15,035 nt of DNA from Nitrososphaerota archaeon (GCA_013378385.1 JACAFS010000024.1:1-15035), one strand, 5' to 3'; positions 1 through 15,035 are shown, counted from the first letter of the stretch. Notes: generated by a model not told the origin, from the letters alone. Made by a program: numbers and translations.

Positions 1-741
1 GATGACTTGGGACTTGAACTCAAACACGACTTCAACTTCCTTACTATCGCCCAAATGGGTCCAAGGAAGAACCTCGCCAATAACATCAGGTGGTTCCTCG
101 AAGAGTTCCACGACGACGAAGTTGGACTTGTAGTAAAAACTCACATGAAGAACTGTAGCACCGCCGACGGACAATATTGTCTACAATCTATGAAAGAATT
201 GACAAAAGACTTCCCAGATAGAAAGTGTAGCGTACACTTGCTTCATGGAGACTTATCTCTTGAACAAATGAATTCTCTTTATACTCACCCAAAAATGAAA
301 GGTTTTGTCACTCTAACCCACGGCGAAGGATATGGGCTCCCCATCTTCGAAGCAGCATATCATGGGTTGCCCGTAGTCGCTCCTGGATGGAGCGGACAAA
401 ATGACTTCCTCTATGCTCCCGTGAAAAGCGGCAAGCAAAAGAAAGCGAAGCTACGCCCCTTATTTGCAAAAGTTGATTATACTATAGGGCAAGTTCCACA
501 GGAAGCTGTTTGGGATGGTGTGGTTCAACAAGACTCTGGCTGGTGTTATCCAACCGAGGGCGGAGCAAAGTCTGCCATGAGAGATGTTTATGGCAACCAT
601 TCAAATTATGTTGGAATGTCTAGAAAGCTTAAAAAACATATCTTAACAAACTTTACGGAAGAACAAATGACGACTAAGTTTGCAGAAGCTGTCTTGGGTG
701 AGAAAATTAAGGAAAAAGAATTGGATTTAGTACATGTCTAA
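1..741 (+). CDS. Glycosyltransferase, GT-B fold, family 4-like; C-terminal part only (5' end outside window)
   Basis: Frame 1 is open from base 1; the track start at 7 is only an internal TTG. It carries the C-terminal GT4-type motif HGEGYGLPIFEAAYHGLPVVAPGWSGQNDF (E-x7-E class). Stop TAA at 739-741. Confidence 0.85.
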   Translation, partial: DDLGLELKHDFNFLTIAQMGPRKNLANNIRWFLEEFHDDEVGLVVKTHMKNCSTADGQYCLQSMKELTKDFPDRKCSVHLLHGDLSLEQMNSLYTHPKMKGFVTLTHGEGYGLPIFEAAYHGLPVVAPGWSGQNDFLYAPVKSGKQKKAKLRPLFAKVDYTIGQVPQEAVWDGVVQQDSGWCYPTEGGAKSAMRDVYGNHSNYVGMSRKLKKHILTNFTEEQMTTKFAEAVLGEKIKEKELDLVHV

Positions 742-2365
742 AATTATTTACATCGCTGACTTCTTTATAGATCAAATATCAGGCGGCGCAGAAATATGCG
801 ATGACAATCTTATAAATATGTTTCTCGATAGAGGTGAAAAAGTAGTTAAGATAAATACTGTTGAATTCAATGATAAACATTTCAACATGTATAAGGGGGC
901 AGGATTTCACTTCATTGTGTCAAATTTTATTAATATGTCTGATATGGTTAAAAATTATATGATAAACCATCCTAATTCATATTCAATTATGGAGCATGAT
1001 CATAAATACCTTAAGACTCGCGATCCTTCAAAATTTGATGACTTTCTTGCCCCAAGCGAATACATTATTAACCGCTCCTTCTATGCCAGTGCTAAAAATG
1101 TTTTTGCTCAATCTAAAATACACGCAGAAGTAATACAAAAGAATCTAAAAATAAAAAACGTAATAAATCTTGGAATGAGTCTTTGGAATGATGAGCAGTT
1201 ACAAGTTATTACGGACAATATAAATAATAAGAAGAAAGATGATTTTTGTATATTGGAAAGCAATAATCCAACTAAGAATACGCAATTTGCTATAAATTAT
1301 TGTGAAAAGAATAATATTAATTACACGCTAATCCCGAGCATGAAGTATGAAGATTATATTTGCGAGCTATCAAAACACAAAACATATCTATTTTTTCCTA
1401 AAGTATTGGAAACATTCAATAGAGTTTTGCTTGAAGCAAAAATGCTTGGGTGTGAAGTTATAACTACAAAACTAAATGGATGCCTGTCTGAAGATTGGTT
1501 ATCTGGAAAAAAGGGAAAGGAGTTAGTTGATTTCGTTAAGAGTCAAAGAGAGGTAGTTTATGACAAAATCAAGAACTCTATCGAAGAAAATGAAAGAGAA
1601 AAAAGTTATTCACAATCACAATCTGACATTACTGTTATCTTAAATGCATACCGACGCCCATACAACCTTAAAATGCAGATTGATTCTATAAGAAATCAAA
1701 CTCATCCTCCAAAAGAAATATGGTTGTGGGTGAATAGTCATGAAGATAATCATGGATTTGATTTTAAAAGTCTTGATGTTGATAAAATAATTCACAACGA
1801 CTTTAATTGGAAATTTTATGGCAGATTCGCAGCAGCACTTTTGGCGGACACAGAATATATTTCGATATATGACGATGACACAGTTCCAGGAAACCGATGG
1901 CATGAAAATTGCTTAGACACTATGCAAGTTAACGAAGGAATATTAGGTTCTGCTGGAATTATTTTAAAAAGCGATAGTTACGTAAATCATGACAGATGTG
2001 GATGGCCAACTAAAAATGAAGATATCACCGAAGTTGACTTAGTTGGACATGCTTGGTTTTTTAAGAGAGAGTGGCTCAGATATTTGTGGCAAGAAAAACC
2101 CGTTACTTGGGACAATGGCGAAGACATACAGTTTGGATTCATGGCAAAAATACATGGCAATATCCCAACCTATTGTCCACCACATCCACCAAGTTGTCCT
2201 GATTTACATGGATCAGTTCTTGGCAACGAGTTGGGAATTGATTCGAAGGCGACTTCAACGGATTCGAGTATATCACATCAGCGCTTTTTCTCTGAAAGAG
2301 ATGAATGTGTTAGAATGGGTATACGAAAAGGCTGGGAAACAGTTAATGGTATAAGGGAGTCATAA
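734..2365 (+). CDS. Two-domain glycosyltransferase: N-terminal GT-B (GT4-like) fused to C-terminal GT-A (DxD; GT2/GT64-like layout)
   Basis: 543-aa ORF whose ATG overlaps the upstream stop by 8 nt. N-half motifs: IYIADFFIDQISGGAE and FNRVLLEAKMLGCEVITT. C-half motifs: ITVILNAYRRPYNL..IRNQTHPPKEIWLWVN, the DxD segment YISIYDDDTVP, then LVGHAWFFKREWL. Confidence 0.8.
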   Translation: MSKIIYIADFFIDQISGGAEICDDNLINMFLDRGEKVVKINTVEFNDKHFNMYKGAGFHFIVSNFINMSDMVKNYMINHPNSYSIMEHDHKYLKTRDPSKFDDFLAPSEYIINRSFYASAKNVFAQSKIHAEVIQKNLKIKNVINLGMSLWNDEQLQVITDNINNKKKDDFCILESNNPTKNTQFAINYCEKNNINYTLIPSMKYEDYICELSKHKTYLFFPKVLETFNRVLLEAKMLGCEVITTKLNGCLSEDWLSGKKGKELVDFVKSQREVVYDKIKNSIEENEREKSYSQSQSDITVILNAYRRPYNLKMQIDSIRNQTHPPKEIWLWVNSHEDNHGFDFKSLDVDKIIHNDFNWKFYGRFAAALLADTEYISIYDDDTVPGNRWHENCLDTMQVNEGILGSAGIILKSDSYVNHDRCGWPTKNEDITEVDLVGHAWFFKREWLRYLWQEKPVTWDNGEDIQFGFMAKIHGNIPTYCPPHPPSCPDLHGSVLGNELGIDSKATSTDSSISHQRFFSERDECVRMGIRKGWETVNGIRES

Positions 2366-3357
2366 TGTTGCTAATTAGTTTTGGAACAAGACCTGAATAT
2401 ATTAAACTTAAGCCAGTCATTGAATCAATCAAAGGAAAGATTCCTTACAAACTTTTATTTACTGGACAACATGTCGACTTGCTGTCAGAGATAGACGGAG
2501 ACATCCAAGAGCTTGAAATTGAAAATGGAAACAATCGTCTTGACTCCATTGTTCAATCTGTAATGAATAACGAAGATATATTTACAGATATATCGGCTGT
2601 CTTAGTACAAGGAGATACGACTTCAGTATTCGCAGTTGCCTTGGCAGCATTCCATAGAAAGATCAAGATAGTTCATTTAGAAGCTGGATTGCGTACTTGG
2701 AACAAATATCATCCATATCCAGAGGAGTTCAATAGATGCGCCGTCTCTCGTATGGCGGATATTCACCTATGCCCTACTGTCAATTCTGCTTCAAATTTAG
2801 AGAATGAGAGAGTGGATGGAAAAATACATGTCGTAGGAAACACTGTTCTGGATAATCTGGTTGGTATTCCAACTTTATACGACAAACATATTATTGTTAC
2901 AATGCATCGAAGAGAAAATCATGGCAATATGGATACATGGTTTAAAAAAATAAACAATTTGGCTAAAGAATATGACGAATATGAATTCATCATTCCACTC
3001 CATCCGAACCCTAATGTACAAAAACATCGTCACTTGTTGACAAATCTGACAGTTGTCGATTCTATGGAGCACGCGAGTTTTATTAAAAAATTAGCAAGCT
3101 CTCATTTAGTTATTACTGATTCTGGAGGAATTCAGGAAGAATCATCGTTTTTTAAGAAAAAGTGCATTGTCTGCCGCGAGCATACGGAGCGAGGAGAAGG
3201 GCTGGAAGTGTTCTCCTTCTTGGCATCAGAAGAAACGATGGAAGGTATTTTTAGAGATTTAGTCGAAGACAATATTCCGTCTGGCGATTGTCCCTACGGT
3301 GATGGAAAATCCGCTGAAAGAATTGCTAAAATTTTGATTGAGGAGCTTAAGTTTTGA
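2365..3357 (+). CDS. wecB: UDP-N-acetylglucosamine 2-epimerase (Epimerase_2 family, compact 330 aa)
   Basis: SD AAGGGAG at 2353-2359, 5 nt before the ATG. Motifs are collinear with E. coli WecB: FGTRPEYIKLKPV, VQGDTTSVFAVALAAFHRKIKIVHLEAGLRT, HPYPEEFNRCAVSRMADIHLCPT, VTMHRREN, PLHPNPNV, ITDSGGIQEES, PYGDGKSAERI. Hydrolysing versus non-hydrolysing type cannot be decided by eye. Confidence 0.93.
   Translation: MLLISFGTRPEYIKLKPVIESIKGKIPYKLLFTGQHVDLLSEIDGDIQELEIENGNNRLDSIVQSVMNNEDIFTDISAVLVQGDTTSVFAVALAAFHRKIKIVHLEAGLRTWNKYHPYPEEFNRCAVSRMADIHLCPTVNSASNLENERVDGKIHVVGNTVLDNLVGIPTLYDKHIIVTMHRRENHGNMDTWFKKINNLAKEYDEYEFIIPLHPNPNVQKHRHLLTNLTVVDSMEHASFIKKLASSHLVITDSGGIQEESSFFKKKCIVCREHTERGEGLEVFSFLASEETMEGIFRDLVEDNIPSGDCPYGDGKSAERIAKILIEELKF
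3340..3345 (+). promoter_or_regulatory. Shine-Dalgarno GAGGAG serving the TTG start at 3354
   Basis: GAGGAG lies 8 nt upstream of the TTG, which overlaps the epimerase stop as TTGA. The next in-frame ATG is 33 codons downstream and would remove the conserved RFSDGE segment. Confidence 0.6.
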
Positions 3358-4157
3358 AAAAATTTGATACAGCATTTAATAACCTTTTAGGCAAAATATC
3401 TAAAAAAGAGAATTTTGCTTTTACAAGATTCTCAGATGGAGAACTGTTTATAATGCAAAACAAGACAGTTATTTTAGCAAAGGATCATTATGTTACGGGC
3501 GACATTAAAGGTCCAAACATTTATACAAAAGAGGAACAAAAAGAATTCTTACCAGAAAGAGATGGATTTTATAGAGAAAAACTCATAGAGTGTTATAAGC
3601 ACAATCGGGACAACTACTTTAAGGGAATCTGCACAGGGACAGACGCACACGTTGGAACTGAAAATTTTAAATATATGATAGATCTTCATGGAGGAGATCA
3701 CCCAAATTTAACTTTTTCTAATCTGCTGATAAATGCAAATTACAGAAGATTTGTTGAGGAAATGATTCCTTTATTTCAGGATAGGGAAATAGTATATATT
3801 GTTAATGAAAACGCAGATATTTCAAGATTGCCTTTTGACATAAAAAAGACGTTTGAGATTGGAGCCAATTGCATGATTAATGATTATGAGACAGCAGAAA
3901 AGGTTAAAGACTACATAAATGAAAATGATATTAAGAATCACATTTTTCTATGCTCCGCTGCCTCATTGAGTAATTATGTTATATACGAGTGCTTTAAGAA
4001 TAATCAAAATAATACATTTCTGGACATTGGAAGTTGTTTGAATCCTCTTTTGAAATTAGAGGGTTGGAAATATACTAGAGGATATCTTACTCACTATTGG
4101 TTAGGAAAGAATAGTAATTTTGGGACACAGGTTGATGTATGGCAAACTATAGATTGA
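3354..4157 (+). CDS. Hypothetical protein; candidate GT-D (DUF1792-like) glycosyltransferase
   Basis: 267-aa ORF with a TTG start and strong SD. The N-terminal FAFTRFSDGELFIMQN resembles the RFGDGE / D-x-E segment I recall for the roughly 270-aa DUF1792 GT-D fold. I recognised no other family motif. Confidence 0.55.
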   Translation: MKKFDTAFNNLLGKISKKENFAFTRFSDGELFIMQNKTVILAKDHYVTGDIKGPNIYTKEEQKEFLPERDGFYREKLIECYKHNRDNYFKGICTGTDAHVGTENFKYMIDLHGGDHPNLTFSNLLINANYRRFVEEMIPLFQDREIVYIVNENADISRLPFDIKKTFEIGANCMINDYETAEKVKDYINENDIKNHIFLCSAASLSNYVIYECFKNNQNNTFLDIGSCLNPLLKLEGWKYTRGYLTHYWLGKNSNFGTQVDVWQTID

Positions 4158-4531
4158 CGCCAAACGAAGAAAAATACTGGGAATTTATTAGAATCCTCAG
4201 AACCACCGACGGTATCGCCCAAGGTTTTATTAAACAAAATAATATTTCTCCTATAAAACAAAAAGAATATATGCTAAAATATAATCAATGTTTTCGAATA
4301 TGTTTAGATGGAAACATTCCAGTTGGATATGTCGGAATTATTGATGACGACATTCGAGTTGCCACTCACCCTGATCACCAAGGCAAGGGCATAGGATCGT
4401 TTATGATAAATGAAGTAATGAAGGATAGTCCATCTGCCGTCGCAAAAGTAAAGATTGATAACAAAGCAAGCTTAAAATTATTTGAAAAATGTGGTTTTAA
4501 GCTTAAGTATTATTTGTTGGAGAAAGAATGA
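4139..4531 (+). CDS. GNAT-family N-acetyltransferase (small, 130 aa)
   Basis: Acetyl-CoA binding motif A: VATHPDHQGKGIGSFMINEVM (Q/R-x-x-G-x-G/A). C-terminal N-x-x-A: DNKASLKLFEKCGFK. The ATG overlaps the upstream gene by 19 nt. Confidence 0.85.
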   Translation: MANYRLTPNEEKYWEFIRILRTTDGIAQGFIKQNNISPIKQKEYMLKYNQCFRICLDGNIPVGYVGIIDDDIRVATHPDHQGKGIGSFMINEVMKDSPSAVAKVKIDNKASLKLFEKCGFKLKYYLLEKE

Positions 4532-5139
4532 GACACAATCCGTTTAAAATTGTTGAGATGTTCGAAGAAACTGTTGCAGATTACACAGGCGCTCCATATG
4601 CCGTGTCGGTAGATTCAAGCACAAATGCACTATTTTTGTGTTGCAAGTATTTGCAAGTTGAGACTGTGACGATACCAGCTAGGACGTACCTATCGGTTCC
4701 TCAATCTATTATCCACGCTGGCGGCAATATTTTATTTTCTGAAAAAGACTGGAAGGGAATATACCAGTTAGAGCCGTATCCAATTTATGATTCAGCAAAG
4801 AGACTTACATCAGGAATGTATATTCCTGGAAGCTTTATGACGCTTTCTTTTCATATTAAAAAACACCTAAAGATGGGAAAAGGTGGTATGATATTGACTG
4901 ACAATGAGGAAGCAGCAGAATGGTTTTTAAGAGCAAGATACGAAGGGCGCAGCAAAGTAAAGTATCATGAAGATAATATTGAAATATGCGGCTGGAACAT
5001 GTATATGACGCCACAAGAGGCTGCGCATGGACTGGCACTAATGCAGAACTTTCCAGAGCACAATGAGGATTTGCCTGAAAACCCTCCTTATCGTGATTTG
5101 AGAGAGTTTGAATTGTTTAAGAACAAGGTTAAAGAATAA
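4528..5139 (+). CDS. DegT/DnrJ/EryC1/StrS-type PLP-dependent sugar aminotransferase, strongly shortened (203 aa)
   Basis: ATGA overlap with the GNAT gene. Family motifs occur in order: FEETVADYTGAPYAVSVDSSTNALFLC, VTIPARTYLSVPQSIIHAGG, IYDSAKRL (PLP Asp region), LSFHIKKHLKMGKGGMILTDNEEAAEWFLRARYEGRS (Schiff-base Lys region), GWNMYMTPQEAAHGL. The N-terminal approximately 25 aa and the C-terminal small domain of typical members are absent. Confidence 0.8.
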   Translation: MRHNPFKIVEMFEETVADYTGAPYAVSVDSSTNALFLCCKYLQVETVTIPARTYLSVPQSIIHAGGNILFSEKDWKGIYQLEPYPIYDSAKRLTSGMYIPGSFMTLSFHIKKHLKMGKGGMILTDNEEAAEWFLRARYEGRSKVKYHEDNIEICGWNMYMTPQEAAHGLALMQNFPEHNEDLPENPPYRDLREFELFKNKVKE

Positions 5140-5142
5140 TAG

Positions 5143-6030
5143 ATGCTAACATTTACTGAATTAGGCAGTCTTGGCAGGCTGGGAAATCAAATGTTTCAAT
5201 ATGCAGCACTTCGTTCAGCAGGACTTAGACTTGGTTTTGAAACCAAAATTCCTAATCCAGAATTAAAAGGCTGGCACGGGCAAAATTGCATGTTAGGAAA
5301 TTTAAACATTCGCAGTGAATATTTAAGCAATACTGATATGAAAAAAATAAAGTATCAATATATTGAAAAAGATTATATGAACTTTGATAATAAAGTATTT
5401 AGTCTTCCAGACAATACAAATATGCATGGGTTTTTTCAAAGTATTCATTATTTTCAAGATTTTAAAGAAGAAATAATTAAAGAACTAATGCCTAGACAAC
5501 AGTTTTTAGACACTGCTGATAAAAAGTTTCAAGATATAAAGAATGCGAATAATGATTACGAGATAGTATCATTGCATTTGCGGAGAGGTGATAATACTGA
5601 TGGCTCTAATCCAAGTAAAGAATTAAACGAGATGTATGGAAAAAGTGGAGACTTAGAAATGAACAGTTTTTACGGCAAATATTTAGTTGATGCAAAGCAG
5701 CGTTTTAAAAATAAGAAGGTTAAGTTCTTGATTTTTACTGGAGGATCGAGAAGTGATGGAAATTCAAATGAAACTGATATGGAATGGTGTCGAAGAAATT
5801 TTGTTGGTGAAGAATATTTGTTTTCTGAGGAAAACGATGTTATAATAGATTTTTCAATGATATCACGATGTGATCATAATATTGTTTCCCATATTAGTAG
5901 CTTTGGATGGTGGGCGGCGTATTTAAATCAAGGTGAAGGAATCGTAATTGCTCCAAGTAATTACCACCCAGACCGCCCTACGATGGGCTACAGGCAGGGA
6001 TTTTACCCAAAAAAATGGATTTTAGTATGA
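5143..6030 (+). CDS. Alpha-1,2-fucosyltransferase (glycosyltransferase family 11)
   Basis: GT11 motifs are collinear with H. pylori FutC: GRLGNQMFQYAA, HGFFQSIHYFQDF, VSLHLRRGDN, DFSMISRCDHNIVSHISSFGWWAAYL. Confidence 0.9.
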   Translation: MLTFTELGSLGRLGNQMFQYAALRSAGLRLGFETKIPNPELKGWHGQNCMLGNLNIRSEYLSNTDMKKIKYQYIEKDYMNFDNKVFSLPDNTNMHGFFQSIHYFQDFKEEIIKELMPRQQFLDTADKKFQDIKNANNDYEIVSLHLRRGDNTDGSNPSKELNEMYGKSGDLEMNSFYGKYLVDAKQRFKNKKVKFLIFTGGSRSDGNSNETDMEWCRRNFVGEEYLFSEENDVIIDFSMISRCDHNIVSHISSFGWWAAYLNQGEGIVIAPSNYHPDRPTMGYRQGFYPKKWILV

Positions 6031-6716
6031 AGTTAATATTTGACATTGGATATAACAAGGGAGAATTTGCACAAGAATGTTTTCGATTATATCCTGATTG
6101 TAAAGTAGTAGGAGTCGAAGCAAATTTAAGTCTCATTTATAATAATCAATCTACGGAGAGTATGGTACTGCTGCACGCATTGGCGTCTTCTGGAGAAAAT
6201 CAATATGAAGATTTTTATATTGAACCAAATCAGAGCGGTATATCCACTGCGTCAACTATGTTTATGAAGAATTCTAGATTTACAAAAGGTTCTAAGAATT
6301 TAAATCCTAACTCTGCAAGATGGAGTTTGAAGACTAAGGTGAAAACGCTCACGATAGACGACATGGTTAAGACTTACGGAATTCCTGATTTGATAAAAAT
6401 AGATGTAGAGGGGTATGAATATGAAGTTCTCAGAGGACTTACGCAGAAACAAAATAAAATTTGTTTTGAGTGGCATGAGGAAGAATACGATACTTTATTG
6501 AAGATTATTGAACATTTACAAAACTTAGGGTATAATGAATTTGGCATTATTGGATACTTTGACGAAGGAGATGTTTTTGATAATGTCACGTATTCCGACA
6601 AAGGAGATCCGTATTTGCAAGAACCAGAAGAATACTGTTCATGGAAAGATATAGACGTCCAGCGATTAGTGAATCCAGAAAGGCGCGTTAATTACGGCAT
6701 GGTGTTTGCGAAATGA
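6015..6716 (+). CDS. FkbM-family SAM-dependent methyltransferase
   Basis: Motifs IFDIGYNKGEFAQ, VVGVEAN, and the hallmark LIKIDVEGYEYEVLRGL. The start could instead be the in-frame ATG at 6027, which forms an ATGA overlap with the upstream stop. Confidence 0.88.
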   Translation: MDFSMKLIFDIGYNKGEFAQECFRLYPDCKVVGVEANLSLIYNNQSTESMVLLHALASSGENQYEDFYIEPNQSGISTASTMFMKNSRFTKGSKNLNPNSARWSLKTKVKTLTIDDMVKTYGIPDLIKIDVEGYEYEVLRGLTQKQNKICFEWHEEEYDTLLKIIEHLQNLGYNEFGIIGYFDEGDVFDNVTYSDKGDPYLQEPEEYCSWKDIDVQRLVNPERRVNYGMVFAK

Positions 6717-8652: not shown

Positions 8653-9463
8653 GAATATAAATTCACTAAGAATGGATATTGGGACGTCTACAACTGCTCC
8701 CAATACGTCCAACTGGATTAGAGATATTGACGACTGTTTCGTTATTGCAGTCGAACCTGTTTTGAGGAATGTTATAACATCAACAGAGCTTATGAGTCAA
8801 AGTGCTAATTTTAAAAATACGTATTTTATACATGCCGCTGTGGACAATGTTAAAGAACCTGAAGAGGGGCTGATGTACGTAACGAAGGGAAACATAGGAT
8901 GTTCAAGTTTGTATTTGCCACGATCTCATAAAATCGAACACGAAGAGAAAGTTACAAAAGTAAGCTTAAATTATATTTTAGATAAAATCGACTGGAAAAG
9001 TGTTAATTTTGATTATATTGAATATTTTAAAACCGACACGCAAGGTAACGAAATCAATGTATTAAAAAGTATGAAAAAATATTTAAATAAAATTGCGATT
9101 TTAGAGATAGAATGTACAACTTGGGACGAATATCATGACACTCCAAAAGAGGACGAAGTTTTATCTTTTCTAGAAGAAAATAACTTTGATTTTTTAAAAA
9201 ATTGTGAAGATTCTTGGCGTCACGATTACGGAATGTATGTCGATAGAATATTTATTAATAAAAACTTCTTGCATCTTAAGGATAAAATCAAAAAAGACTT
9301 TGCCCCAGATAGTCGTCTTGTGAGTATTCACTCTGAAGGCTCTCCGCAGCGTTCTGTCGATGTTAATTCTTTCGCCATAGCTTTTGGCAACGTGATGATG
9401 GAACGACAAGTGGATTCTAAAGTTAATAATTATTATTCTTTCCCCACCAAGGAATTGTCATGA
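8633..9463 (+). CDS. Probable FkbM-like methyltransferase (divergent)
   Basis: SD AAGGTGG lies just upstream. LRMDIGTSTTAPNTSNW sits at the position of the SAM-binding D-x-G-x-x-x-G. YFKTDTQGNEINVLKSM matches the FkbM K-x-D-x-E/Q-G-x-E-x-x-V-L hallmark. ILEIECT follows. Confidence 0.65.
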   Translation: MKIEIPKNINSLRMDIGTSTTAPNTSNWIRDIDDCFVIAVEPVLRNVITSTELMSQSANFKNTYFIHAAVDNVKEPEEGLMYVTKGNIGCSSLYLPRSHKIEHEEKVTKVSLNYILDKIDWKSVNFDYIEYFKTDTQGNEINVLKSMKKYLNKIAILEIECTTWDEYHDTPKEDEVLSFLEENNFDFLKNCEDSWRHDYGMYVDRIFINKNFLHLKDKIKKDFAPDSRLVSIHSEGSPQRSVDVNSFAIAFGNVMMERQVDSKVNNYYSFPTKELS

Positions 9464-10458
9464 ATTATTGGAAAGATAAAAAGGTTATTATTACTGGAGG
9501 CGCAGGAATGATTGGTTCCGCCCTGTCTTGTGATATGGTAAGGAGAGGAGCAAAAGTAACCGTCATAGATGATTTTTCACGGGGCAGTAGGAAGTCTCTT
9601 GATAGCGTAGCTAGTGCTATTACCATCATTGTGGCTGATTTGCGCGACTATAATTTATGTGTAGAAAATATTATAGATGCTGATATCGTTGTCCACATGG
9701 CATCTAAAGTGGGAGGCATAAAGGTATATACAGATAGTCCATTTTCGATAATGAATGATAATATTTTAATTGATTCAAATGTGATTAAGGCAACAATTCA
9801 TAATAATATTAAGAATTTCTTCTATGCCAGCAGTGCTCATGTATACCCAATTGAGTTGCAGGACAGTATAGAACAAGAGCAAAGCATTGCGGAAGAACAG
9901 GCGTACCCAGCAAATCCACTATTAACATATGGGTGGGCAAAGTTGATTTCCGAGAAACAACTAGTGAGCGCCACCAGCGAGGTTGAGGGTTTTTCAGCCG
10001 CCATCGCACGCTACATTGGTATATATGGAAAAAATCAAGATTATGATTTAGAAACAGGTTCAGTAATACCAGTATTTTCGAATCGCGCTATTCAATATCC
10101 AAAGGTTGACTTTACTATTTGGGGGGATGGAAAAGAAACTCGCTCCTATTGCTACATTGATGATGCAGTGACATGTACTGTGATGATGATGGAGAAATTA
10201 GAAAATAAGAAAGTTGTAGGACCTTATAACGTTGGATCAGACGAAACGATAACTATTGAAGAAATAGCTCAGAAAATAATCAAGATATCGGGTAAAAGCG
10301 TAATAATAGAGTTTGATACTACTAAGAAGGCAAAAATATTATCACAACAATGTGATTGTAGCCGTATTCAAAAGGAGTTGGGTTGGAAAATAACAACATC
10401 ATTTGATGATGGTTTAAAAATAGTGTATAATGATATTAAGATAAGGAGAGAACAATGA
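9460..10458 (+). CDS. Extended-SDR NDP-sugar epimerase/reductase, paralogous to GDP-fucose synthase / GDP-mannose 3,5-epimerase-like
   Basis: ATGA overlap. Motifs: VIITGGAGMIGSAL (Rossmann), HMASKVGGIKV (KVGGI as in the Fcl family), FFYASSAHVYP, YGWAKLISE (Y-x-x-x-K), WGDGKETRSYCYIDD. The N-terminus MNYWKDKKVIITG mirrors the fcl N-terminus MNFWKDKRILITG. Confidence 0.85.
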   Translation: MNYWKDKKVIITGGAGMIGSALSCDMVRRGAKVTVIDDFSRGSRKSLDSVASAITIIVADLRDYNLCVENIIDADIVVHMASKVGGIKVYTDSPFSIMNDNILIDSNVIKATIHNNIKNFFYASSAHVYPIELQDSIEQEQSIAEEQAYPANPLLTYGWAKLISEKQLVSATSEVEGFSAAIARYIGIYGKNQDYDLETGSVIPVFSNRAIQYPKVDFTIWGDGKETRSYCYIDDAVTCTVMMMEKLENKKVVGPYNVGSDETITIEEIAQKIIKISGKSVIIEFDTTKKAKILSQQCDCSRIQKELGWKITTSFDDGLKIVYNDIKIRREQ

Positions 10459-11384
10459 AAGTATTAGTTACAGGCGGCGCTGGTTATATCGGCAGCGAAT
10501 TGGTTCAATATCTGTTGGACGATGGATATGAAGTAGTGGTTATCGATTCCCTGATGTATGACAAGACATCACTACTGCGCTATGCAAATAATCCTAATTT
10601 TTCTTTTGTTAAGGGCGATGTAAGAAACATCCCTTTGATGGAAAAACTAATGTCTGACGTAGACGTTATAATCCCATTGGCTGCACTAGTTGGCTTCCCT
10701 CTTTGCGACGACTATCCTCGCGATGCTCAAGAGATTAATCATGACGTTAATACGTGGATTGCGCAGAACAAAAGTCCAGAACAGAGGGTTATTTATCCTT
10801 GTACGAATTCTGGCTACGGTGTTAGTATCGATGGCTCTGTATGCACAGAAGAGTCTCCGCTTAATCCACTGTCTCTCTATGGACGAACAAAAGTTGCCGC
10901 AGAGAACGAATATAAGAATGTTGAAAACTACGCAACATTCAGATTAGCTACAGTGTTCGGTCCAGGTTCACGTATGCGTTCCGATCTTCTTGTAAATAAT
11001 TTTGTTCTTAGGACATTGCGAGATAGAGTCTTAGTTCTTTATGAATGTGAATTCATGCGAAACTATGTCCATCTTCACGATGTATGTCGTGGATTTATGT
11101 TTATTCTTGACAATTGGGAAGAGTGTAAAAACGAAACGTACAATCTCGGAAATGATGATTTAAATATGAACAAACTTCAGTTGGCTGAGAAAATTAAAGA
11201 ACATCTACCGCTTGAGATTATTCGTGCAGAAATCAATAGTGATCCAGACACTCGCGACTACATCGTAAGTAGCGACAAGATTTATAACAAAGGATACGAA
11301 TGTGAATACGATTTAGATGATGGTATTCGACAGTTAATTACTGCGTTCGCTATTATAGAGAGCCCATGGTTCGCCAATTATTAA
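10455..11384 (+). CDS. NAD-dependent NDP-sugar epimerase/dehydratase (extended SDR), specificity unknown
   Basis: SD AAGGAG at 10443-10448 and an ATGA overlap. Motifs: VLVTGGAGYIGSEL, YGRTKVAAE (Y-x-x-x-K), LATVFGPGSRMRSDLLVNNFV. Confidence 0.88.
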   Translation: MKVLVTGGAGYIGSELVQYLLDDGYEVVVIDSLMYDKTSLLRYANNPNFSFVKGDVRNIPLMEKLMSDVDVIIPLAALVGFPLCDDYPRDAQEINHDVNTWIAQNKSPEQRVIYPCTNSGYGVSIDGSVCTEESPLNPLSLYGRTKVAAENEYKNVENYATFRLATVFGPGSRMRSDLLVNNFVLRTLRDRVLVLYECEFMRNYVHLHDVCRGFMFILDNWEECKNETYNLGNDDLNMNKLQLAEKIKEHLPLEIIRAEINSDPDTRDYIVSSDKIYNKGYECEYDLDDGIRQLITAFAIIESPWFANY

Positions 11385-11385
11385 T

Positions 11386-11715
11386 ATGACATACGTATTT
11401 GACATTGATGGAACGATATGTACCACTACAGATGGAGACTATGCTCTCGCAAAGCCTCTAGAAGCTCGTATAGGCTTGGTAAATAAATTATACGATGAAG
11501 GGCACACAATAATTTTTCAAACCGCTAGAGGCATGGGCAGGAGTGGAAATTCTGTAATGCTGTCATATGAAATGTTTGAAGTAGCCACTAAAAATCAATT
11601 GGATATGTGGGGAGTAAAATACCACTCTTTATTTTTAGGGAAGCCTTCTGGAGATTTTTATATAGATGACAAAGGAATAAAAGATGAAGACTTCTTTACC
11701 AATAAAACACGTTGA
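11386..11715 (+). CDS. Minimal cap-less HAD-superfamily phosphatase (109 aa); candidate sugar-phosphate (GmhB-like role) phosphatase
   Basis: All four HAD motifs occur in order: I = FDIDGTI, II = QTARG, III = GKPSG, IV = YIDDKG. The assigned role is inferred from the adjacent heptose kinase and nucleotidyltransferase genes. Confidence 0.8.
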   Translation: MTYVFDIDGTICTTTDGDYALAKPLEARIGLVNKLYDEGHTIIFQTARGMGRSGNSVMLSYEMFEVATKNQLDMWGVKYHSLFLGKPSGDFYIDDKGIKDEDFFTNKTR

Positions 11716-12043
11716 TAAGGGTTGGGGCTATGAAAAGTGGATAGTAAATTGCGAAGAATATTGTGGAAAACTGCTATTTTTTAATGAAGGGAAACAATGT
11801 TCGTGGCACTATCATAAATTAAAAGATGAGGTTTTCTATTTACAATCTGGAAAAATGATGGTATACTATTCTATAGAGGATAATATAAAGGAAGCAGCAC
11901 AAGTTATTCTGAATCCTGGAGATAACTTTCACGTATTCCGAGGGCTACGACACCGAATGTTAGCACTTGAAGATTCGGAATTATTTGAATTTTCAACAGA
12001 ACATTTTGATAGCGACTCTTACAGACTTCAAAAGGGAGATTGA
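11684..12043 (+). CDS. Cupin-domain protein (type II phosphomannose-isomerase-like single barrel)
   Basis: An AAAGGAA SD lies 7 nt upstream, and the ATG overlaps the HAD gene by 32 nt. Motifs: KGWGYEKW, GKLLFFNEGKQCSWHYHKLKDEVFYLQSG, PGDNFHVFRGLRHR. Paralogous to the partial ORF at 14819. Confidence 0.8.
   Translation: MKTSLPIKHVDKGWGYEKWIVNCEEYCGKLLFFNEGKQCSWHYHKLKDEVFYLQSGKMMVYYSIEDNIKEAAQVILNPGDNFHVFRGLRHRMLALEDSELFEFSTEHFDSDSYRLQKGD
12032..12038 (+). promoter_or_regulatory. Shine-Dalgarno AAGGGAG upstream of ATG 12049
   Basis: A purine-rich SD lies 10 nt before the ATG at 12049. That ATG is in the same frame as track ORF 12109-12453. No comparable SD precedes the TTG at 12109. Confidence 0.5.
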
Positions 12044-12048
12044 GAACA

Positions 12049-12453
12049 ATGAACAGACGATACCTACCAACGCTTTCTGAATTAGTAGATAGATGATCTA
12101 TTGCACAATTGAAAGAAGTTTTTATTTCTGAGCACAAAGAAGAGTACGCTCAAGAAATATCAGACATATGTCATGACATTCAGGGAATCTTGGAAGAAAA
12201 TTCAGAACAAGCGACAGCAGATTTTATACGCGCAGTTGTAGTTCTTTCTCAGATGAATCTTCACATCTGGCACAACGAATCACAAGTTCGCGCTGGAACT
12301 GGAGATGGCAATCTTGAATTGACGCATGGATTGAATGGAATTAGGAATACGGCTAAGAACAAAATTCAAGAAGTCTGCGGAGGGAGAAAGGATTATAAAA
12401 TTGATTGCCTCGCTGCTGATTTTGAAGATTGGGAGATTAGTTGGAATGAATGA
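12049..12453 (+). CDS. Helical protein of unknown function (DUF4254-like), reading frame interrupted by in-frame TGA at 12094-12096 (possible pseudogene, recoding or reinitiation)
   Basis: Translation from ATG 12049 reads MNRRYLPTLSELVDR-TGA-SIAQLKEVFISEHKEEY, in the same frame as the track ORF that starts at TTG 12109. The downstream NLHIWHNESQVR and NGIRNTAKNKIQE fit my recollection of the N..LWH.ED..R and N..RN pattern of DUF4254. Confidence 0.55.
12089..12101. repeat. 13-bp perfect palindrome ATAGATGATCTAT centred on the in-frame TGA
   Basis: Bases 12089-12094 pair with 12096-12101 and the centre is G12095. As RNA this gives a 5-bp stem (AUAGA/UCUAU) with UGA as the triloop. Confidence 0.7.
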
Positions 12454-12745
12454 AAAAAAAACATTCACGGAATACTATCAATATTATTTAACATTACACC
12501 AAAATAAGATAAATAGATGGTTGCACGCTGTGGGACAATGCGTTACATTGGCAACATTGTGGTGCGCCATAACAACTCAAACGTGGATCGTATTGCCACT
12601 GGTGCCCTTTGTAGTATACCCTTTCGCATGGCTTGGGCACTTGTATTTCGAGAAAAACACGCCAGCAGCATGGACACGTCCAATTTGGGCTAAAGCTTGC
12701 GACTGGGTTATGTTGAAAGATATGCTGACAGGAAAGCTAAGGTGA
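12446..12745 (+). CDS. DUF962 (Mpo1/YGL010w-like) small integral membrane protein
   Basis: I prefer the ATG at 12446 (ATGAATGA overlap with the upstream stop) over the track ATG at 12335, which would overlap the previous gene by 119 nt. Motifs: FTEYYQYYLTLHQNKINRWLHAVGQ, a hydrophobic span, then WLGHLYFEKNTPAA. These match the F..Y...H.n..N...H and GH..fE...PA pattern of DUF962. Confidence 0.72.
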   Translation: MNEKKTFTEYYQYYLTLHQNKINRWLHAVGQCVTLATLWCAITTQTWIVLPLVPFVVYPFAWLGHLYFEKNTPAAWTRPIWAKACDWVMLKDMLTGKLR

Positions 12746-13494
12746 GAGTTTTAGTTATTGGCGATAGCTGTAAGGATGTATTTGACTATGGCTTTTGTGA
12801 ACGGCTTGCACCCGCCGCTCCCGTTCCCGTTTTTGTTTCAAGAACAAGGAAAAGTAACAAGGGTATGGCAGGGAACGTGTTCGAAAACTTGATTAATCTT
12901 GGATTTGAATGCGACATCATCACAAATAAGAAAGAGATAGTTAAAACACGTTTTGTTGATGAAGGGACAAATCATATGATTGTGAGAATAGATTCAGGGG
13001 AAGAAAACCTTGAGAGGATAAACAACTTGCACCTCATTCCGTTTGAAAGTTATGATGCAATTGTGATATCAGATTACAACAAGGGATTCGTAACATCAGA
13101 AGACATAGAATATATCTCTAGAAAGCATAGCATTGTTTTTTTAGATACAAAAAAGTTAATTGGTGACTGGGCAAGAGACATCTCATTTATTAAAATAAAT
13201 AAGCCAGAATTTGAAAGAACGAAACACTTGTTTGAGCAGAAAGTGTGGATAAAAGAGAAGCTGATAGTGACACTAGGATCAGAAGGTTGTGTATATTGCG
13301 ACGAAAAGTTTACTGTTGATAAGGTAGAAATAAAGGATTTAACTGGAGCGGGTGATACATTCTTGTCAGCACTTGTTCATAATTATTTAAATACTAAAAA
13401 TATAAAACAATCAATTAAGTTCGCCAACAAGTGTGCGACAATTGTTGTTCAACAAAAGGGAGTTAATGTCATCAATGTCGATAATTTGGACTAA
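12742..13494 (+). CDS. hldA: D-glycero-beta-D-manno-heptose-7-phosphate kinase-like (RfaE/HldE domain I, PfkB family), stand-alone
   Basis: Collinear with the E. coli HldE N-domain: [29 protein letters not shown] vs [81 protein letters not shown]. I prefer the GTG at 12742 (GTGA overlap, AGGAAAG SD 8 nt upstream). The track start, TTG at 12697, remains possible. Confidence 0.9.
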   Translation: [250 protein letters not shown]

Positions 13495-13867
13495 TGGCTG
13501 CTTTGATGTTCTCCATCGAGGGCATTTTGAACTTCTTAAATATGCAAAATCTCTGGGTGAATATCTAATTGTAGGTATTGATTCTGATGCGAAAGTCCGA
13601 AAAGATAAAGGATTGGATAGACCATATAATACCGAGGATGATAGAAAATTTGCTCTCGAAAGTATACGACATGTCGATAAAGTTATAATATTTGATTCCA
13701 GAGACGAACTGTCCAATTTGATAAAAGAATCTCGCCCATCTTGTATGGTAATAGGTTCCGACTGGAGAGGGAAAGATGTCGTCGGACAGGAATACGCACA
13801 AGAACTGTGCTTTTATGATAGAATAGGGAATTACTCAACTACAAACGTTTTAAAGGAGATGAAATGA
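13466..13867 (+). CDS. hldC: D-glycero-beta-D-manno-heptose-1-phosphate adenylyltransferase-like (RfaE/HldE domain II, cytidylyltransferase fold), stand-alone
   Basis: Motifs: [35 protein letters not shown] vs HldE [59 protein letters not shown] vs STTNIIKKI. The start is ATG 13466 or 13475, after AAGGGAG at 13456-13462. The track start at 13433 is a GTG with no SD. Confidence 0.9.
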   Translation: [133 protein letters not shown]

Positions 13868-14814
13868 GATTGGTTGTTATCACTGGTTGCTTAGGTCTTA
13901 TAGGATCTCATGTCACTAAATTGTGTTTAGAAAAGGGATGGAAAGTTTATGGAATTGATAATTGTACTTATGCTGCGAACATTGATTTAATATCAAAGTT
14001 CGAAGAGAACTCAAATTTTACATTTAGAAAACAAGACATATCAAAACTGTCGTATATACCTGATTGCGATTACGTTATAAACATAGCAGCAGAATCGCAT
14101 GTCGGGAACAGCATAGTAAATTCTACCGATTTCATTCAGACAAATATTGTAGGTGTTAAGAATCTTCTCGAAGTAATCCGAAATAAACAAAACAATGTTA
14201 GCGATTTACCTATTTTTTTCCACTTCAGTACAGATGAAGTGTATGGAGACATCTCGTCTGGAGAGCATACTGAAGAAGATTTACTAAAACCAAGTAATCC
14301 GTATTCAGCTTCCAAGGCAGCGGCAGATATGCTTATTTTTGCATGGGCAAGAACGTACGGAATAAAATATAATATTATTAGACCTACTAACAATTATGGC
14401 ATTGGACAGTATCCTGAAAAATTGATACCAATTTCAGTGAAAAACCTGATGAGAGGTAAGAGGATTAAACTTCATGATGAAGGGCATCCAATTCGAAACT
14501 GGTTGCACTCTAGCGACACTGCGACTGCGGTAGTCGCTATAATAGAATCTGGAGCATCGAACGAGATTTTCAATGTATCGAGCGACTTTGAGCAAAAAAA
14601 TATAGATACTGTGAAGAAAATAATACACTCCTATTTCGGTGAAGAGGTGGACATAGAAGAATATATTGACTTAGGGCATAATAGAAAGGGACAAGACGTT
14701 CGTTATGCGTTAAATGATGATAAAATTAAAGCATTAGGGTGGATTCCGAAAATGAATTTTGATAATGAAATTGGACATATTGTAGAAGATTATTCTACTA
14801 AATTTAGGTGGTAA
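13864..14814 (+). CDS. rfbB: NDP-hexose 4,6-dehydratase (dTDP-glucose 4,6-dehydratase RmlB family)
   Basis: SD AAGGAG at 13853-13858 and an ATGA overlap. Collinear with E. coli RfbB: VVITGCLGLIGSHV, NIAAESHVGNSI, IQTNIVGV, FSTDEVYGD, PSNPYSASKAAADML, RPTNNYGIGQYPEKLIP, IRNWLHSSD, RKGQDVRYALNDDKIKALGWIP. The nucleotide and sugar specificity is not determinable by eye. Confidence 0.92.
   Translation: MRLVVITGCLGLIGSHVTKLCLEKGWKVYGIDNCTYAANIDLISKFEENSNFTFRKQDISKLSYIPDCDYVINIAAESHVGNSIVNSTDFIQTNIVGVKNLLEVIRNKQNNVSDLPIFFHFSTDEVYGDISSGEHTEEDLLKPSNPYSASKAAADMLIFAWARTYGIKYNIIRPTNNYGIGQYPEKLIPISVKNLMRGKRIKLHDEGHPIRNWLHSSDTATAVVAIIESGASNEIFNVSSDFEQKNIDTVKKIIHSYFGEEVDIEEYIDLGHNRKGQDVRYALNDDKIKALGWIPKMNFDNEIGHIVEDYSTKFRW
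14806..14811 (+). promoter_or_regulatory. Shine-Dalgarno AGGTGG serving ATG 14819
   Basis: AGGTGG lies 7 nt upstream of the ATG at 14819. It supports the frame-2 ORF that is absent from the track. Confidence 0.55.
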
Positions 14815-14818
14815 GATA

Positions 14819-15035
14819 ATGACTAAAATAGAAAAACCTTGGGGATACGAGATTCATTGGGCAAAAACAGACGGATATGTCGGGAAGCTTCTCTTTATCA
14901 ATGCTGGACATCGCCTCTCAAAACAATATCACGAAGTGAAAGAAGATACTCTCTATGTTCTCAGCGGAGTTCTACCCAACTACGACGAACACGACACGCC
15001 AATGAAAATACTTCCAGGTGAGTCATTTCACGTCA
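14819..15035 (+). CDS. Second cupin-domain protein (PMI type II-like), 5' part only; runs off the window end
   Basis: Hand translation of frame 2 gives 72 codons with no stop: MTKIEKPWGYEIHWAKTDGYVGKLLFINAGHRLSKQYHEVKEDTLYVLSGVLPNYDEHDTPMKILPGESFHV. It shares PWGYE, GKLLF.N.G, YH..K.E..Y.LSG and PG..FHV with the cupin at 11684-12043. The track ORF 14839-15021 is in a different frame. Confidence 0.75.
   Translation, partial: MTKIEKPWGYEIHWAKTDGYVGKLLFINAGHRLSKQYHEVKEDTLYVLSGVLPNYDEHDTPMKILPGESFHV

Follow-up and report, generated by a model that had tools for sequence, protein, structure and literature searches.

The window analyzed here, a stretch of 15,035 nucleotides (nt) filed under Nitrososphaerota archaeon (GCA_013378385.1, JACAFS010000024.1:1-15035) and considered at its full length, reads by gene content and synteny as part of the genome of an uncultured, abundant marine myovirus that is T4-like in its baseplate module. 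About 85% of a glycan-synthesis island of 17-18 kb falls within it, an island in which a fixed core of sugar-activating enzymes and glycosyltransferases (GTs) is followed by variable cassettes, and in which the membrane components of glycan priming, polymerization and export are absent. Phage origin and this export-free design, taken jointly, are held with high confidence. A tentative proposal for the product, given somewhat less than an even chance, is a strain-specific glycan whose cytoplasmic assembly takes place on an acceptor that the phage encodes, a virion protein being the most plausible one. Its fuller form is offered more guardedly: an export-free factory with an exostosin-like two-domain polymerase core and swappable cassettes would coat the phage's own virions and amount to phage 'serotypes'.

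The window matches a metagenome contig that, being only 15.9 kb long, has no informative flanks, and the phage context is shown by synteny, not by this contig: the same island lies on IMG/VR contigs of 85-190 kb. Contigs bearing it include IMGVR_UViG_3300030108_004965 (191,696 bp), 3300030419_007131 (165 kb), 3300038530_003085 (187 kb) and 3300032085_001886 (44.7 kb), the last being nearest to the window in its cassettes. In the complete islands of three related loci (L017, L023 and L124; related loci are cited by such handles where needed), an RmlB-like gene comes last, and a weakly gp55-like gene follows within ~1 kb. After it come genes for a lysozyme-domain protein, a protein of ~2200 amino acids (aa) and a gp25-like baseplate wedge protein (phrog_261, 4e-22; 29% identity to T4-type gp25). 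Genes for PhoH, HNH and Hsp20 lie upstream of the island, and GC content is equal in island and flank (0.376 versus 0.374). Several contigs also carry tRNA genes (Asn, Thr, Met, Gly, Ala) and a tmRNA gene a few kilobases upstream of the island. The tmRNA genes (L008 708-1019, L053 765-1102, L039 751-1061 and L042 4267-4589; Rfam RF00023, 82-129 bits) encode the tags ANDADYDLALAA, ANNNLHFDEAARLAA, ANNNVEFDSVALAA and ANDDFQLAQAA. No bacterial ribosomal or housekeeping genes were seen in any flank. An earlier reading of the window from its sequence alone (the sequence-only reading) had held a phage-borne cluster and a bacterial surface-glycan island to be equally possible; synteny, the gp25-like module and the distribution of the two-domain transferase g02 (734..2365) now clearly favor the phage. 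Its comparison with T4-like cyanophages stands in the T4-like part, given the gp25-like baseplate module, and fails in the cyanophage part, the nearest relatives being phages immuto and Mel-JY01, though a GT11 gene is shared with cyanophages.

Among cultured phages the lineage is closest to Flavobacterium phage immuto, Microcystis phage Mel-JY01 and Rhodothermus phage RM378, all of them distant (25-34% identity). Its gp55-like and GT genes match only immuto and Mel-JY01 (27-34%) and not pelagi- or cyanomyophages. Megablast of the entire window and tblastn of g02 against 50,697 phage records each gave no match, and the lineage has no close cultured member. PhoH was tried as a lineage marker and rejected as uninformative, since its best identity is 38% and its matches are scattered over unrelated phages. 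An upstream walk on the 191-kb contig L093 met NUDIX/isomerase-like, HNH and unassigned proteins and no hallmark gene. The flanks also hold very large open reading frames (ORFs) of 1164-2326 aa (L094 13282-19758, L093 9410-13495, L016 11-3700), acidic and lysine-rich, for whose products no PHROG, Pfam or phage tblastn match was found; one of these ORFs stands directly before the gp25-like gene and may encode a structural protein. Large flanking proteins of 879-2158 aa likewise gave no match in these searches. A 9.6-kb contig, L084 (CALJEH010000084.1), carries another copy of the island and is the closest relative for the core and middle genes of the window, with g04, g06 and g16 (numbered by order in the window) 81%, 88% and 83% identical to those of the window. 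It is binned in an 'uncultured Alphaproteobacteria' metagenome-assembled genome (MAG) and is probably phage DNA in the bin, a weak host hint, as are the tmRNA tags of the ANDxxxxLAA type.

Membrane proteins were sought with a crude predictor that counts hydrophobic 19-mers (Kyte-Doolittle, KD, value of at least 1.6), applied to the window and to the region within 10 kb on either side of the island in 53 related viral loci. No protein of the window has more than one such segment. The Mpo1/DUF962 protein (12446-12745) has one and is the only plausible small membrane protein there, in agreement with the sequence-only reading, which had named it as the sole membrane protein and had seen no multi-span protein. 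The 1196 ORFs of the 53 loci include none with four or more segments and, inside any island, none with two or more; the few ORFs with two or three are small and confined to the upstream flanks. As a control, bacterial exporters and polymerases (loci L085, L088, L089) score 5-9 segments with this predictor and a phage holin scores 4. Profile searches with Pfam and NCBIfam found no WbaP/WecA-type priming transferase in the window, and the segment count showed none among the 1196 ORFs. Wzx/Wzy-type polytopic proteins are missing from the window and the related loci, including the three complete islands, and ABC_tran and ABC_membrane gave no match in the window or in the scanned flanks of relatives. 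A GtrABC-type cassette is likewise not indicated, there being no membrane proteins, no integrase in the flanks scanned and a T4-like, lytic-type context. The earlier observation that priming transferase, flippase, polymerase, exporter and ligase are all missing thus extends to the flanks of the 53 loci. The neighbors of the island are not the export and priming genes that would mark an ordinary O-antigen or capsule locus; they are nuclease and PhoH genes upstream and gp55-like and baseplate genes downstream, that is, phage genes on both sides without wzx/wzy-type genes. The island combines virus-encoded soluble GTs and sugar-nucleotide pathways with no membrane-export genes, the combination that characterizes a virion-glycosylation system. 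The further argument of the sequence-only reading, that soluble GTs point to a soluble acceptor, does not discriminate, because O-antigen transferases are likewise soluble or peripheral.

Gene families were assigned with Pfam and NCBIfam profiles, and NCBIfam scores were compared with the curated cut-offs. The window contains 21 ORFs, all on the plus strand, as follows (SDR, short-chain dehydrogenase/reductase; NDP, nucleoside diphosphate).

1..741, plus strand: GT4b, C-terminal 246 codons of a 414-aa protein; GT-B/GT4 type with an E-x7-E motif, weak Pfam GT4 match
734..2365, plus strand: g02, a 543-aa two-domain transferase; Pfam GT2 at residues 300-448
2365..3357, plus strand: WecB, non-hydrolyzing UDP-GlcNAc 2-epimerase (yielding UDP-ManNAc); Pfam Epimerase_2 2.4e-69, NCBIfam wecB 237 bits, above the cut-off of 210
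3354..4157, plus strand: GT-D-fold-like putative GT; Pfam GT-D-like 22.5 bits, below the cut-off of 27, and a weak NCBIfam GT-D_rel match
4139..4531, plus strand: GNAT N-acetyltransferase, presumed to act in amino-sugar N-acetylation; Pfam Acetyltransf_1 3.7e-11
4528..5139, plus strand: 203-aa mini-DegT, a putative sugar aminotransferase; Pfam DegT 4.2e-22 in two stretches
5143..6030, plus strand: GT11 alpha-1,2-fucosyltransferase-like protein, a variable cassette; Pfam Glyco_transf_11 1e-24
6015..6716 (start possibly 6027), plus strand: FkbM methyltransferase, probably a sugar O-methyltransferase; Pfam Methyltransf_21 5.4e-17, above the NCBIfam fkbM_fam cut-off
6713..7705, plus strand: Glyco_trans_1_2 GT (GT-B C-terminal type); Pfam PF13524 6.5e-10
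7702..8652, plus strand: GDP-L-fucose synthase-like SDR (3,5-epimerase/4-reductase); Pfam Epimerase 3e-48, NCBIfam GDPFucSynFcl 297 bits, under the cut-off of 500
8633..9463, plus strand: second FkbM-family methyltransferase; Pfam Methyltransf_21 3.5e-10
9460..10458, plus strand: NDP-sugar epimerase/dehydratase, extended SDR; Pfam Epimerase 6.4e-43, no NCBIfam equivalog over its cut-off
10455..11384, plus strand: NDP-sugar epimerase/reductase, extended SDR; Pfam Epimerase 7.2e-33 and RmlD_sub_bind
11386..11715, plus strand: 109-aa HAD phosphatase, EcbF/BcbF capsule-phosphatase-like, presumed to be the sugar-bisphosphate phosphatase of a heptose-type branch; NCBIfam TIGR01689 3.3e-12, below cut-off
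11684..12043, plus strand: cupin, presumed NDP-sugar epimerase or isomerase; Pfam Cupin_2 1.1e-7
12049..12453, plus strand: g16, a conserved 134-aa helical protein with no Pfam or NCBIfam match
12446..12745, plus strand: Mpo1-like/DUF962 small hydrophobic protein of 99 aa; Pfam Mpo1-like 9.9e-29
12742..13494, plus strand: PfkB kinase, like HldE/RfaE domain I heptose-7-phosphate kinase; rfaE_dom_I 2.8e-35 (below cut-off), PfkB 2.3e-20
13466..13867, plus strand: nucleotidyltransferase, like HldE/RfaE domain II heptose-1-phosphate adenylyltransferase; rfaE_dom_II 2e-33 (below cut-off), CTP_transf_like 2.4e-18
13864..14814, plus strand: RmlB-like SDR (dTDP-glucose 4,6-dehydratase-like); NCBIfam dTDP_gluc_dehyt 299.5 bits, cut-off 365
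14819..15035, plus strand: second cupin, N-terminal 72 codons, running out of the window; read from the sequence, clusters with the cupin at 11684-12043

This Pfam and NCBIfam gene content agrees with the five or six GTs and at least four activated-sugar branches counted in the sequence-only reading. By family assignment the cassettes of the window comprise the GT11 gene, the two FkbM genes, the GDP-fucose-type synthase, the SDRs, the split HldE-like branch and the RmlB-like gene. The sugars predicted from the island are ManNAc, a fucose-type 6-deoxyhexose, heptose and O-methyl sugars. The GT11 protein is 28-31% identical to GT11 gene products of 102 phage records, nearly all of them cyanomyoviruses.

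The island consists of an invariant beginning and a variable remainder. The backbone order in the 53 viral loci is PIN-PhoH, a small ORF, a 229-aa metallopeptidase-like protein, a PD-(D/E)XK nuclease, GT4a, GT4b, g02, WecB, the GT-D-like protein, GNAT and mini-DegT. GT4b, a core gene whose full length is seen in L001 (427-1671), is present in 51 of the 53 loci at 40-52% identity and shares 30% identity with a phage immuto protein annotated as a glycosyltransferase. Downstream of the core, 41 architectures occur in 49 loci, and 110 protein clusters are found downstream of g02. Cassettes other than those of the window include HAD, PfkB, RpiB (as a fusion), split transketolase, WavE-like and sulfotransferase genes, and genes for a B12-binding radical-SAM enzyme, an E1 dehydrogenase and UDP-glucose dehydrogenase (examples in L040 13433-21281 and L174 10690-20402). 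Some relatives also have phosphomannomutase and an extra cytidylyltransferase upstream of PhoH. Because L124 holds homologs of window genes g07-g20 (52-80% identity, in rearranged order), the right end of the window probably lies within 1-2 kb of the end of the island. This hypervariability of the cassettes would point to a surface-exposed, diversifying product. Hypervariable regions of marine T4-like phages were already known to hold glycan gene clusters; what is new is the lineage, the position of the island, its seven-gene invariant core followed by cassettes, and the systematic lack of the membrane half in ~50 islands as compared with a bacterial counterpart.

The signature core gene of the island is g02. 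Its N-terminal domain is compact and GT-B/GT4-like, with the motifs GGxE, EHDHKY and E226-x7-E234, and its C-terminal domain is GT-A/GT2-like, with DDD at 380-382. In a 30-sequence alignment GGxE, EHDHKY and E-x7-E (within the first 290 residues) and the DDD of the GT-A domain are invariant. An AlphaFold2 (AF2) model of g02 (pLDDT, predicted local distance difference test, 81) has the two-domain glycosaminoglycan polymerases EXT1/EXT2, EXTL3, PmHS2 and K4CP as its top Foldseek matches in the PDB (E 1e-11 to 1e-7). With a template-modeling (TM) score of only ~0.27, the modeled likeness to these alternating co-polymerases is one of architecture, and any polymerase-like action of g02 would follow from that likeness. 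Among viral structures in BFVD the best match of g02 is a Homavirus GT (30% identity), and further matches include multi-domain GTs of ChoanoV1, Fadolivirus, Catovirus, Tupanvirus and uncultured phages. IMG/VR viral contigs, the longest of 191 kb, carry 94 relatives of g02, and no full-length g02 was found in 185,579 bacterial and archaeal species genomes save on one 9.6-kb MAG-binned contig, a distribution by which the GT-B plus GT-A fusion appears phage-specific. Searches of PDB sequences with GT4a, GT4b and the GT-D-like protein returned generic GT4 matches or none, and the Pfam 'GT4-conflict' match reflects generic GT4 resemblance, with nothing specific in the literature. A GtfA/GtfB-like arrangement of GT4a and GT4b as catalytic subunit and chaperone was considered and rejected because both proteins keep E-x7-E.

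The mini-DegT protein is the most conserved core gene product (62-88% identity across relatives). It aligns to residues 40-108 and 177-252 of perosamine synthetase 3bn1 and keeps the Schiff-base lysine in SFHIKK. It consists only of the large pyridoxal phosphate (PLP) domain, with an internal deletion, and the C-terminal domain is absent. The sequence YDSAKR in the unaligned segment 75-100 is taken here to hold the PLP-binding Asp. Its identity is 46% to immuto gp172 and 36% to the homolog in cyanomyovirus S-SCSM2R, and homologs also occur in three uncultured phage records of ~600 kb.

The g16 gene is extremely common in marine metagenome sets (at least 8000 clusters at 90% identity and 507 at 50%), and its product keeps ~80% identity where neighboring genes reach only 50-60% (L174-L176, ~10001-10402). 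The AF2 model is helical (pLDDT 89); in the PDB it has no sequence match and no fold match with E below 0.5. In the window, codon 16 of g16 (12094-12096) is an in-frame TGA, where the near-identical contigs L001 and L002 read TTA (Leu); the remaining differences between the window and L001, at 2176, 2179, 2204 and 2212, are all synonymous. The TGA could be a natural nonsense allele or an assembly error, and TTG at 12109 could restart translation. An Mpo1/DUF962 gene usually stands behind g16 in relatives, and the pairing is seen in L175 and L176. Some relatives hold two copies of g16 in proteins of ~610 aa, one of them with a weak DUF4254 match; apart from that, the two-copy or longer relatives gave only NUMOD3/HNH, in a different protein.

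The island is unusually compact. Recomputation reproduced every junction coordinate of the sequence-only reading and its description of 21 co-directional, nearly gapless genes. The junctions comprise 16 overlaps (1-32 nt) and 4 gaps (1-5 nt), which leave 13 non-coding nt in the 15-kb window. Overlaps are of 1 nt at 2365, of 4 nt at 3354, 4528, 6713, 7702, 9460, 10455, 12742 and 13864, of 8 nt at 734 and 12446, and of 16 to 32 nt at 4139, 6015, 8633, 11684 and 13466; the gaps are 3 nt at 5139/5143, 1 nt at 11384/11386, 5 nt at 12043/12049 and 4 nt at 14814/14819. Some details of the earlier gene list change. The first ORF (7-741) is the C-terminal part of the 414-aa GT4 gene; for the start at 6015, the 6027 of the collection's gene caller is equally possible and would create another ATGA overlap; and it overlooked the in-frame TGA within 12049-12453. 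Junctions of 5 nt or less make up 90% of 575 in the islands of the 53 related phage loci versus 45% of 349 in the upstream flanks of the same contigs; the ORF caller used keeps the longest ORFs and so somewhat inflates overlaps. Compaction is thus a property of the island across the lineage, beyond a general phage trait.

Shine-Dalgarno matches of at least 4 nt precede 17 of 20 starts, versus 19% of 354 control ATGs, and the island genes would be translated by coupling. Both sigma-70-like sites (66 versus 59 +/- 8 in shuffled sequence) and terminator-like sites (9 versus 7.6 +/- 2.8) occur in the window at background level, and a search of the window for Rfam families and tRNA found none. The string of genes extends past both ends of the window, with a further GT4 gene upstream of GT4b. 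It is a reasonable inference from this arrangement that the genes would be transcribed as one long unit starting upstream of the window, near PhoH. The claim of the sequence-only reading that there is no room for internal promoters is right in that the gaps are tiny, and goes too far in that promoters can sit in coding sequence. Intergenic sequence of the lineage is enriched 5-8 fold in the motif CTATTTA(T/A), a candidate lineage-specific promoter element. In at least 10 loci a copy stands 13-25 nt ahead of the start of PhoH (for example, L008 4491, L026 4061 and L051 4291). Other copies precede gp25-like genes and the gene that comes first behind the gp55-like one (baseplate-module examples at L096 ~10690 and L126 ~20110), and over all these genes the motif lies 4-25 nt upstream of the start codon. 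Its sequence is not that of the T4 late consensus TATAAATA, and the window has one copy in this orientation, at 11836 within a gene.

Pelagimyophages (HTVC008M-type) and the cyanomyoviruses P-SSM2, S-SCSM1 and S-SCSM2R are likewise large marine T4-like phage genomes. The lipopolysaccharide (LPS) or 'cell-wall' clusters of such phages contain GTs, NDP-sugar epimerases/dehydratases and rfaE-type heptose genes, vary among relatives, under-recruit in metagenomes and are experimentally unassigned (PMC7029224; PMC12801897). Cyanomyovirus clusters share GT11 and mini-DegT homologs with the island at 28-36% identity. The pelagi- and cyanomyophage clusters sit between vrlC and gp14, in a 'host recognition cluster' that also holds tail-fiber genes, whereas the island lies between PhoH/nuclease and gp55-like/baseplate genes and, unlike them, is one contiguous string of up to ~18 kb with a seven-gene core and then cassettes. 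For the ~2200-aa protein adjoining the island, phage records and PHROGs gave no match that would support identity with VrlC, and no tail-fiber gene was identified around the island.

The cluster of phage immuto offers a distant cultured counterpart. It opens with a PD-(D/E)XK nuclease and two GTs that are 30% identical to GT4a and GT4b, and continues with a GT2, aminotransferases, a methyltransferase, a 214-aa short aminotransferase (46% identical to g06), an acetyltransferase, an epimerase and GTs. Like the island it is co-directional and has no predicted membrane protein. It spans ~11 kb, lies ~18 kb from the gp55-like gene and lacks g02, WecB, the GT-D-like protein, GT11 and a heptose or fucose-type branch. 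The nuclease-GT4a-GT4b unit is kept in immuto (L083 9380-13299), Mel-JY01 (L179 6935-11862) and RM378 (L178 5045-8726). The RM378 unit stands alone, with no other glycan genes, beside ribonucleotide reductase, Erf and helicase.

Bacteria (Vibrio, Dechloromonas, Rhodobacteraceae and others) have a GT-D-like/GT2/WecB module at 26-40% identity. In it the GT-D-like gene directly precedes GT2, WecB lies on either side, and a ~570-aa unannotated protein is often adjacent; in two genomes GT-D-like and GT2 are fused into a ~540-aa protein (L085 9239-10858, L092 9275-10909). In Vibrio tetraodonis (L088 6292-13859) the module is accompanied by RmlA, an acetyltransferase, full-length DegT, an ABC exporter with transmembrane and nucleotide-binding domains and an EpsG polymerase, with a 419-aa protein next to the module and then the exporter; its sugar-tailoring enzymes are of the same families as those of the island. 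The bacterial loci carry an exporter and EpsG or other proteins of 5-9 segments, and the phage islands never do; given a module that sits beside exporter and polymerase in bacteria, the phage lineage would have kept the soluble part only.

A two-domain architecture is common to g02, the heparosan and chondroitin synthases and the EXT-type GT-B plus GT-A enzymes. Giant viruses have clade-specific glycan clusters for fibril or capsid glycosylation (PMC10117803; PMC9614988), and it is established that phage GTs glycosylate the capsid and tail tube of mycobacteriophages (Freeman et al. 2023, as summarized in PMC12619734). As far as these accounts go, virion glycosylation in Megavirinae, chloroviruses and mycobacteriophages uses soluble viral GTs and no membrane export, as the island would. 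Megavirinae and chloroviruses also encode rare bacterial-type sugar pathways in clade-specific sets, as described in the same sources, and in this they resemble the island, whose virion glycans are predicted from genes. Apart from the Homavirus GT-A domain, the sequence likeness to these viral systems does not go beyond generic GT folds. Mycobacteriophage systems have two or three GTs beside structural genes and no sugar-activation pathways, and differ from the island in both respects.

Under the tentative virion-protein proposal, the island would supply the cytoplasmic half of a glycosylation system, namely activated sugars, soluble transferases and tailoring enzymes, and the glycan would be assembled in the cytoplasm of the infected cell. 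With a virion protein as acceptor, lipid priming, flipping, periplasmic polymerization and export would therefore not be needed. That nuclease-GT4a-GT4b is retained by phages whose hosts belong to three phyla, differing in their envelopes, fits a phage-encoded acceptor, as does the sharing of CTATTTA by PhoH and baseplate-module genes, and by analogy the Homavirus match of g02 and the precedents from giant viruses and mycobacteriophages fit a virion acceptor. Several points weigh against the proposal. It is drawn from genes, and the polymerase likeness of g02 is at the level of modeled architecture, at a TM score of ~0.27. The large flanking proteins have no Ser/Thr-rich regions and so are not proposable as acceptors; the role of CTATTTA as a mark of temporal class is that of a candidate; and in RM378, Mel-JY01 and this lineage the genes that adjoin the GT4 pair serve DNA metabolism and are not structural. 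A universal lipid acceptor, for example undecaprenyl-diphosphate-linked GlcNAc (Und-PP-GlcNAc), would equally explain the conservation of GT4a and GT4b. WecB, the RmlB-like gene, the GDP-fucose-type synthase, heptose activation, GT11 and FkbM are what loci for O-antigen and capsule contain. Varied glycans can be tolerated by ABC-dependent and group-2 capsule exporters, and a host could therefore supply priming and export. Genomes of 150-200 kb were read within 10 kb of the island, and membrane genes could lie elsewhere in them. Comparable phage clusters have been read as modifying the host O-chain or 'glycotype' (PMC7029224; PMC12379486).

The last points lead to a rival held to be only slightly less probable than the virion-protein proposal: the island would remodel the host envelope, its cytoplasmic steps plugging into the host's lipid-linked pathway and the host's priming and export displaying an altered O-chain or capsule, which as part of the same view would block superinfection or alter recognition by grazers and phages. 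Besides the O-antigen and capsule families, it can call on the bacterial GT-D/GT2/WecB homologs in an exporter-containing locus, on the occurrence of GT11 and mini-DegT in cyanomyovirus 'cell-wall' clusters, on a hypervariability that mirrors host glycotype islands and on the published interpretation of pelagimyophage and cyanomyophage clusters (PMC7029224; PMC12801897; PMC12379486). It has to account for 0 of 53 islands with a priming, flipping, polymerizing, ligating or exporting component, and for a core GT4 pair kept across phages of three host phyla. The exporters of every host would have to accept a foreign glycan, and no experimental demonstration was found in the literature consulted for any lytic marine phage. 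Serotype converters of temperate phages, moreover, carry membrane components (Gtr-type). Some other cytoplasmic product is unlikely, whether a glycoconjugate or polysaccharide in soluble or lipid-anchored form, such as a polymer for storage or protection, a modified small molecule or a redirected sugar-nucleotide pool. The window has no acceptor-defining gene, the conserved g16 and Mpo1-like proteins are without an assigned role, and relatives have phosphomannomutase, extra cytidylyltransferases and a NUDIX/phosphoheptose-isomerase-like fusion nearby, all in keeping with such a product; five or six GTs with methyltransferases and O-antigen-like hypervariability nevertheless point to a complex exposed glycan, and no precedent was found in the literature consulted.

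Hypermodification of DNA, in which the GTs would glycosylate modified phage bases against restriction as in T-even and 5-hydroxymethylcytosine (5hmC)-glycan clusters, is very improbable. Published phage GT clusters, some with epimerases, do attach sugars to cytosine, from monosaccharides up to trisaccharides and with seven- and eight-carbon units among them (bioRxiv 10.1101/2023.12.21.572611), and the GT4 pair of RM378 and Mel-JY01 has nuclease and replication genes for neighbors. These known clusters, however, have one to three GTs, whereas the island has at least 20 genes, O-methyltransferases and four or five sugar branches. Liquid chromatography with ultraviolet and mass-spectrometric detection (LC-UV-MS) of virion DNA of immuto, which has the homologous GT4a/GT4b/mini-DegT cluster, gave canonical dA, dC and dT, with fdPreQ1 replacing dG and no glycosylated nucleoside reported (PMC10516641), a result that disfavors the DNA acceptor entertained by the sequence-only reading. 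An approximate query with E. coli ThyA found no ThyA- or hydroxymethylase-like gene within 10 kb of the island in the lineage, the sole match being in L075, a distant contig bearing just a homolog of the g02 C-terminal domain, and no cytosine methyltransferase or TET-type gene was seen among the flank ORFs scanned. Still more improbable is an ordinary bacterial surface-polysaccharide island on contigs misclassified as viral. It could appeal to L084, a relative sitting in an alphaproteobacterial MAG, and to the bacterial origin of each enzyme family, and is opposed by the PhoH/HNH/nuclease genes upstream and the gp55-like/gp25-like module downstream on the 85-190-kb contigs, by the phage tRNA and tmRNA genes nearby, by the same arrangement in the cultured phage immuto, by the lack of full-length g02 in the species genomes outside the short contig L084 and by flanks free of ribosomal and housekeeping bacterial genes.

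Marine T4-like phages give ~10% of the genome to glycan genes, and to our knowledge the attachment target of these glycans has not been demonstrated by anyone. The acceptor question is now experimentally tractable, as the cultured relative immuto has a syntenic cluster and the island core is compact and conserved. The 203-aa aminotransferase, the GT-B plus GT-A fusion and the very abundant 134-aa helical protein are of interest as proteins in their own right. If the target is the host envelope, the island would be a clean case of a lytic phage rewiring a surface polysaccharide by way of host exporters. If the target is the virion, ocean phages would carry variable glycan coats, with effects on adsorption, grazing, aggregation, decay and detection by antibodies or lectins, and the hypervariable islands would form a second, virus-side layer of glycotypes in phage-host coevolution. 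Should the coating proposal hold true, the system would be a bacteriophage counterpart of giant-virus fibril glycosylation.

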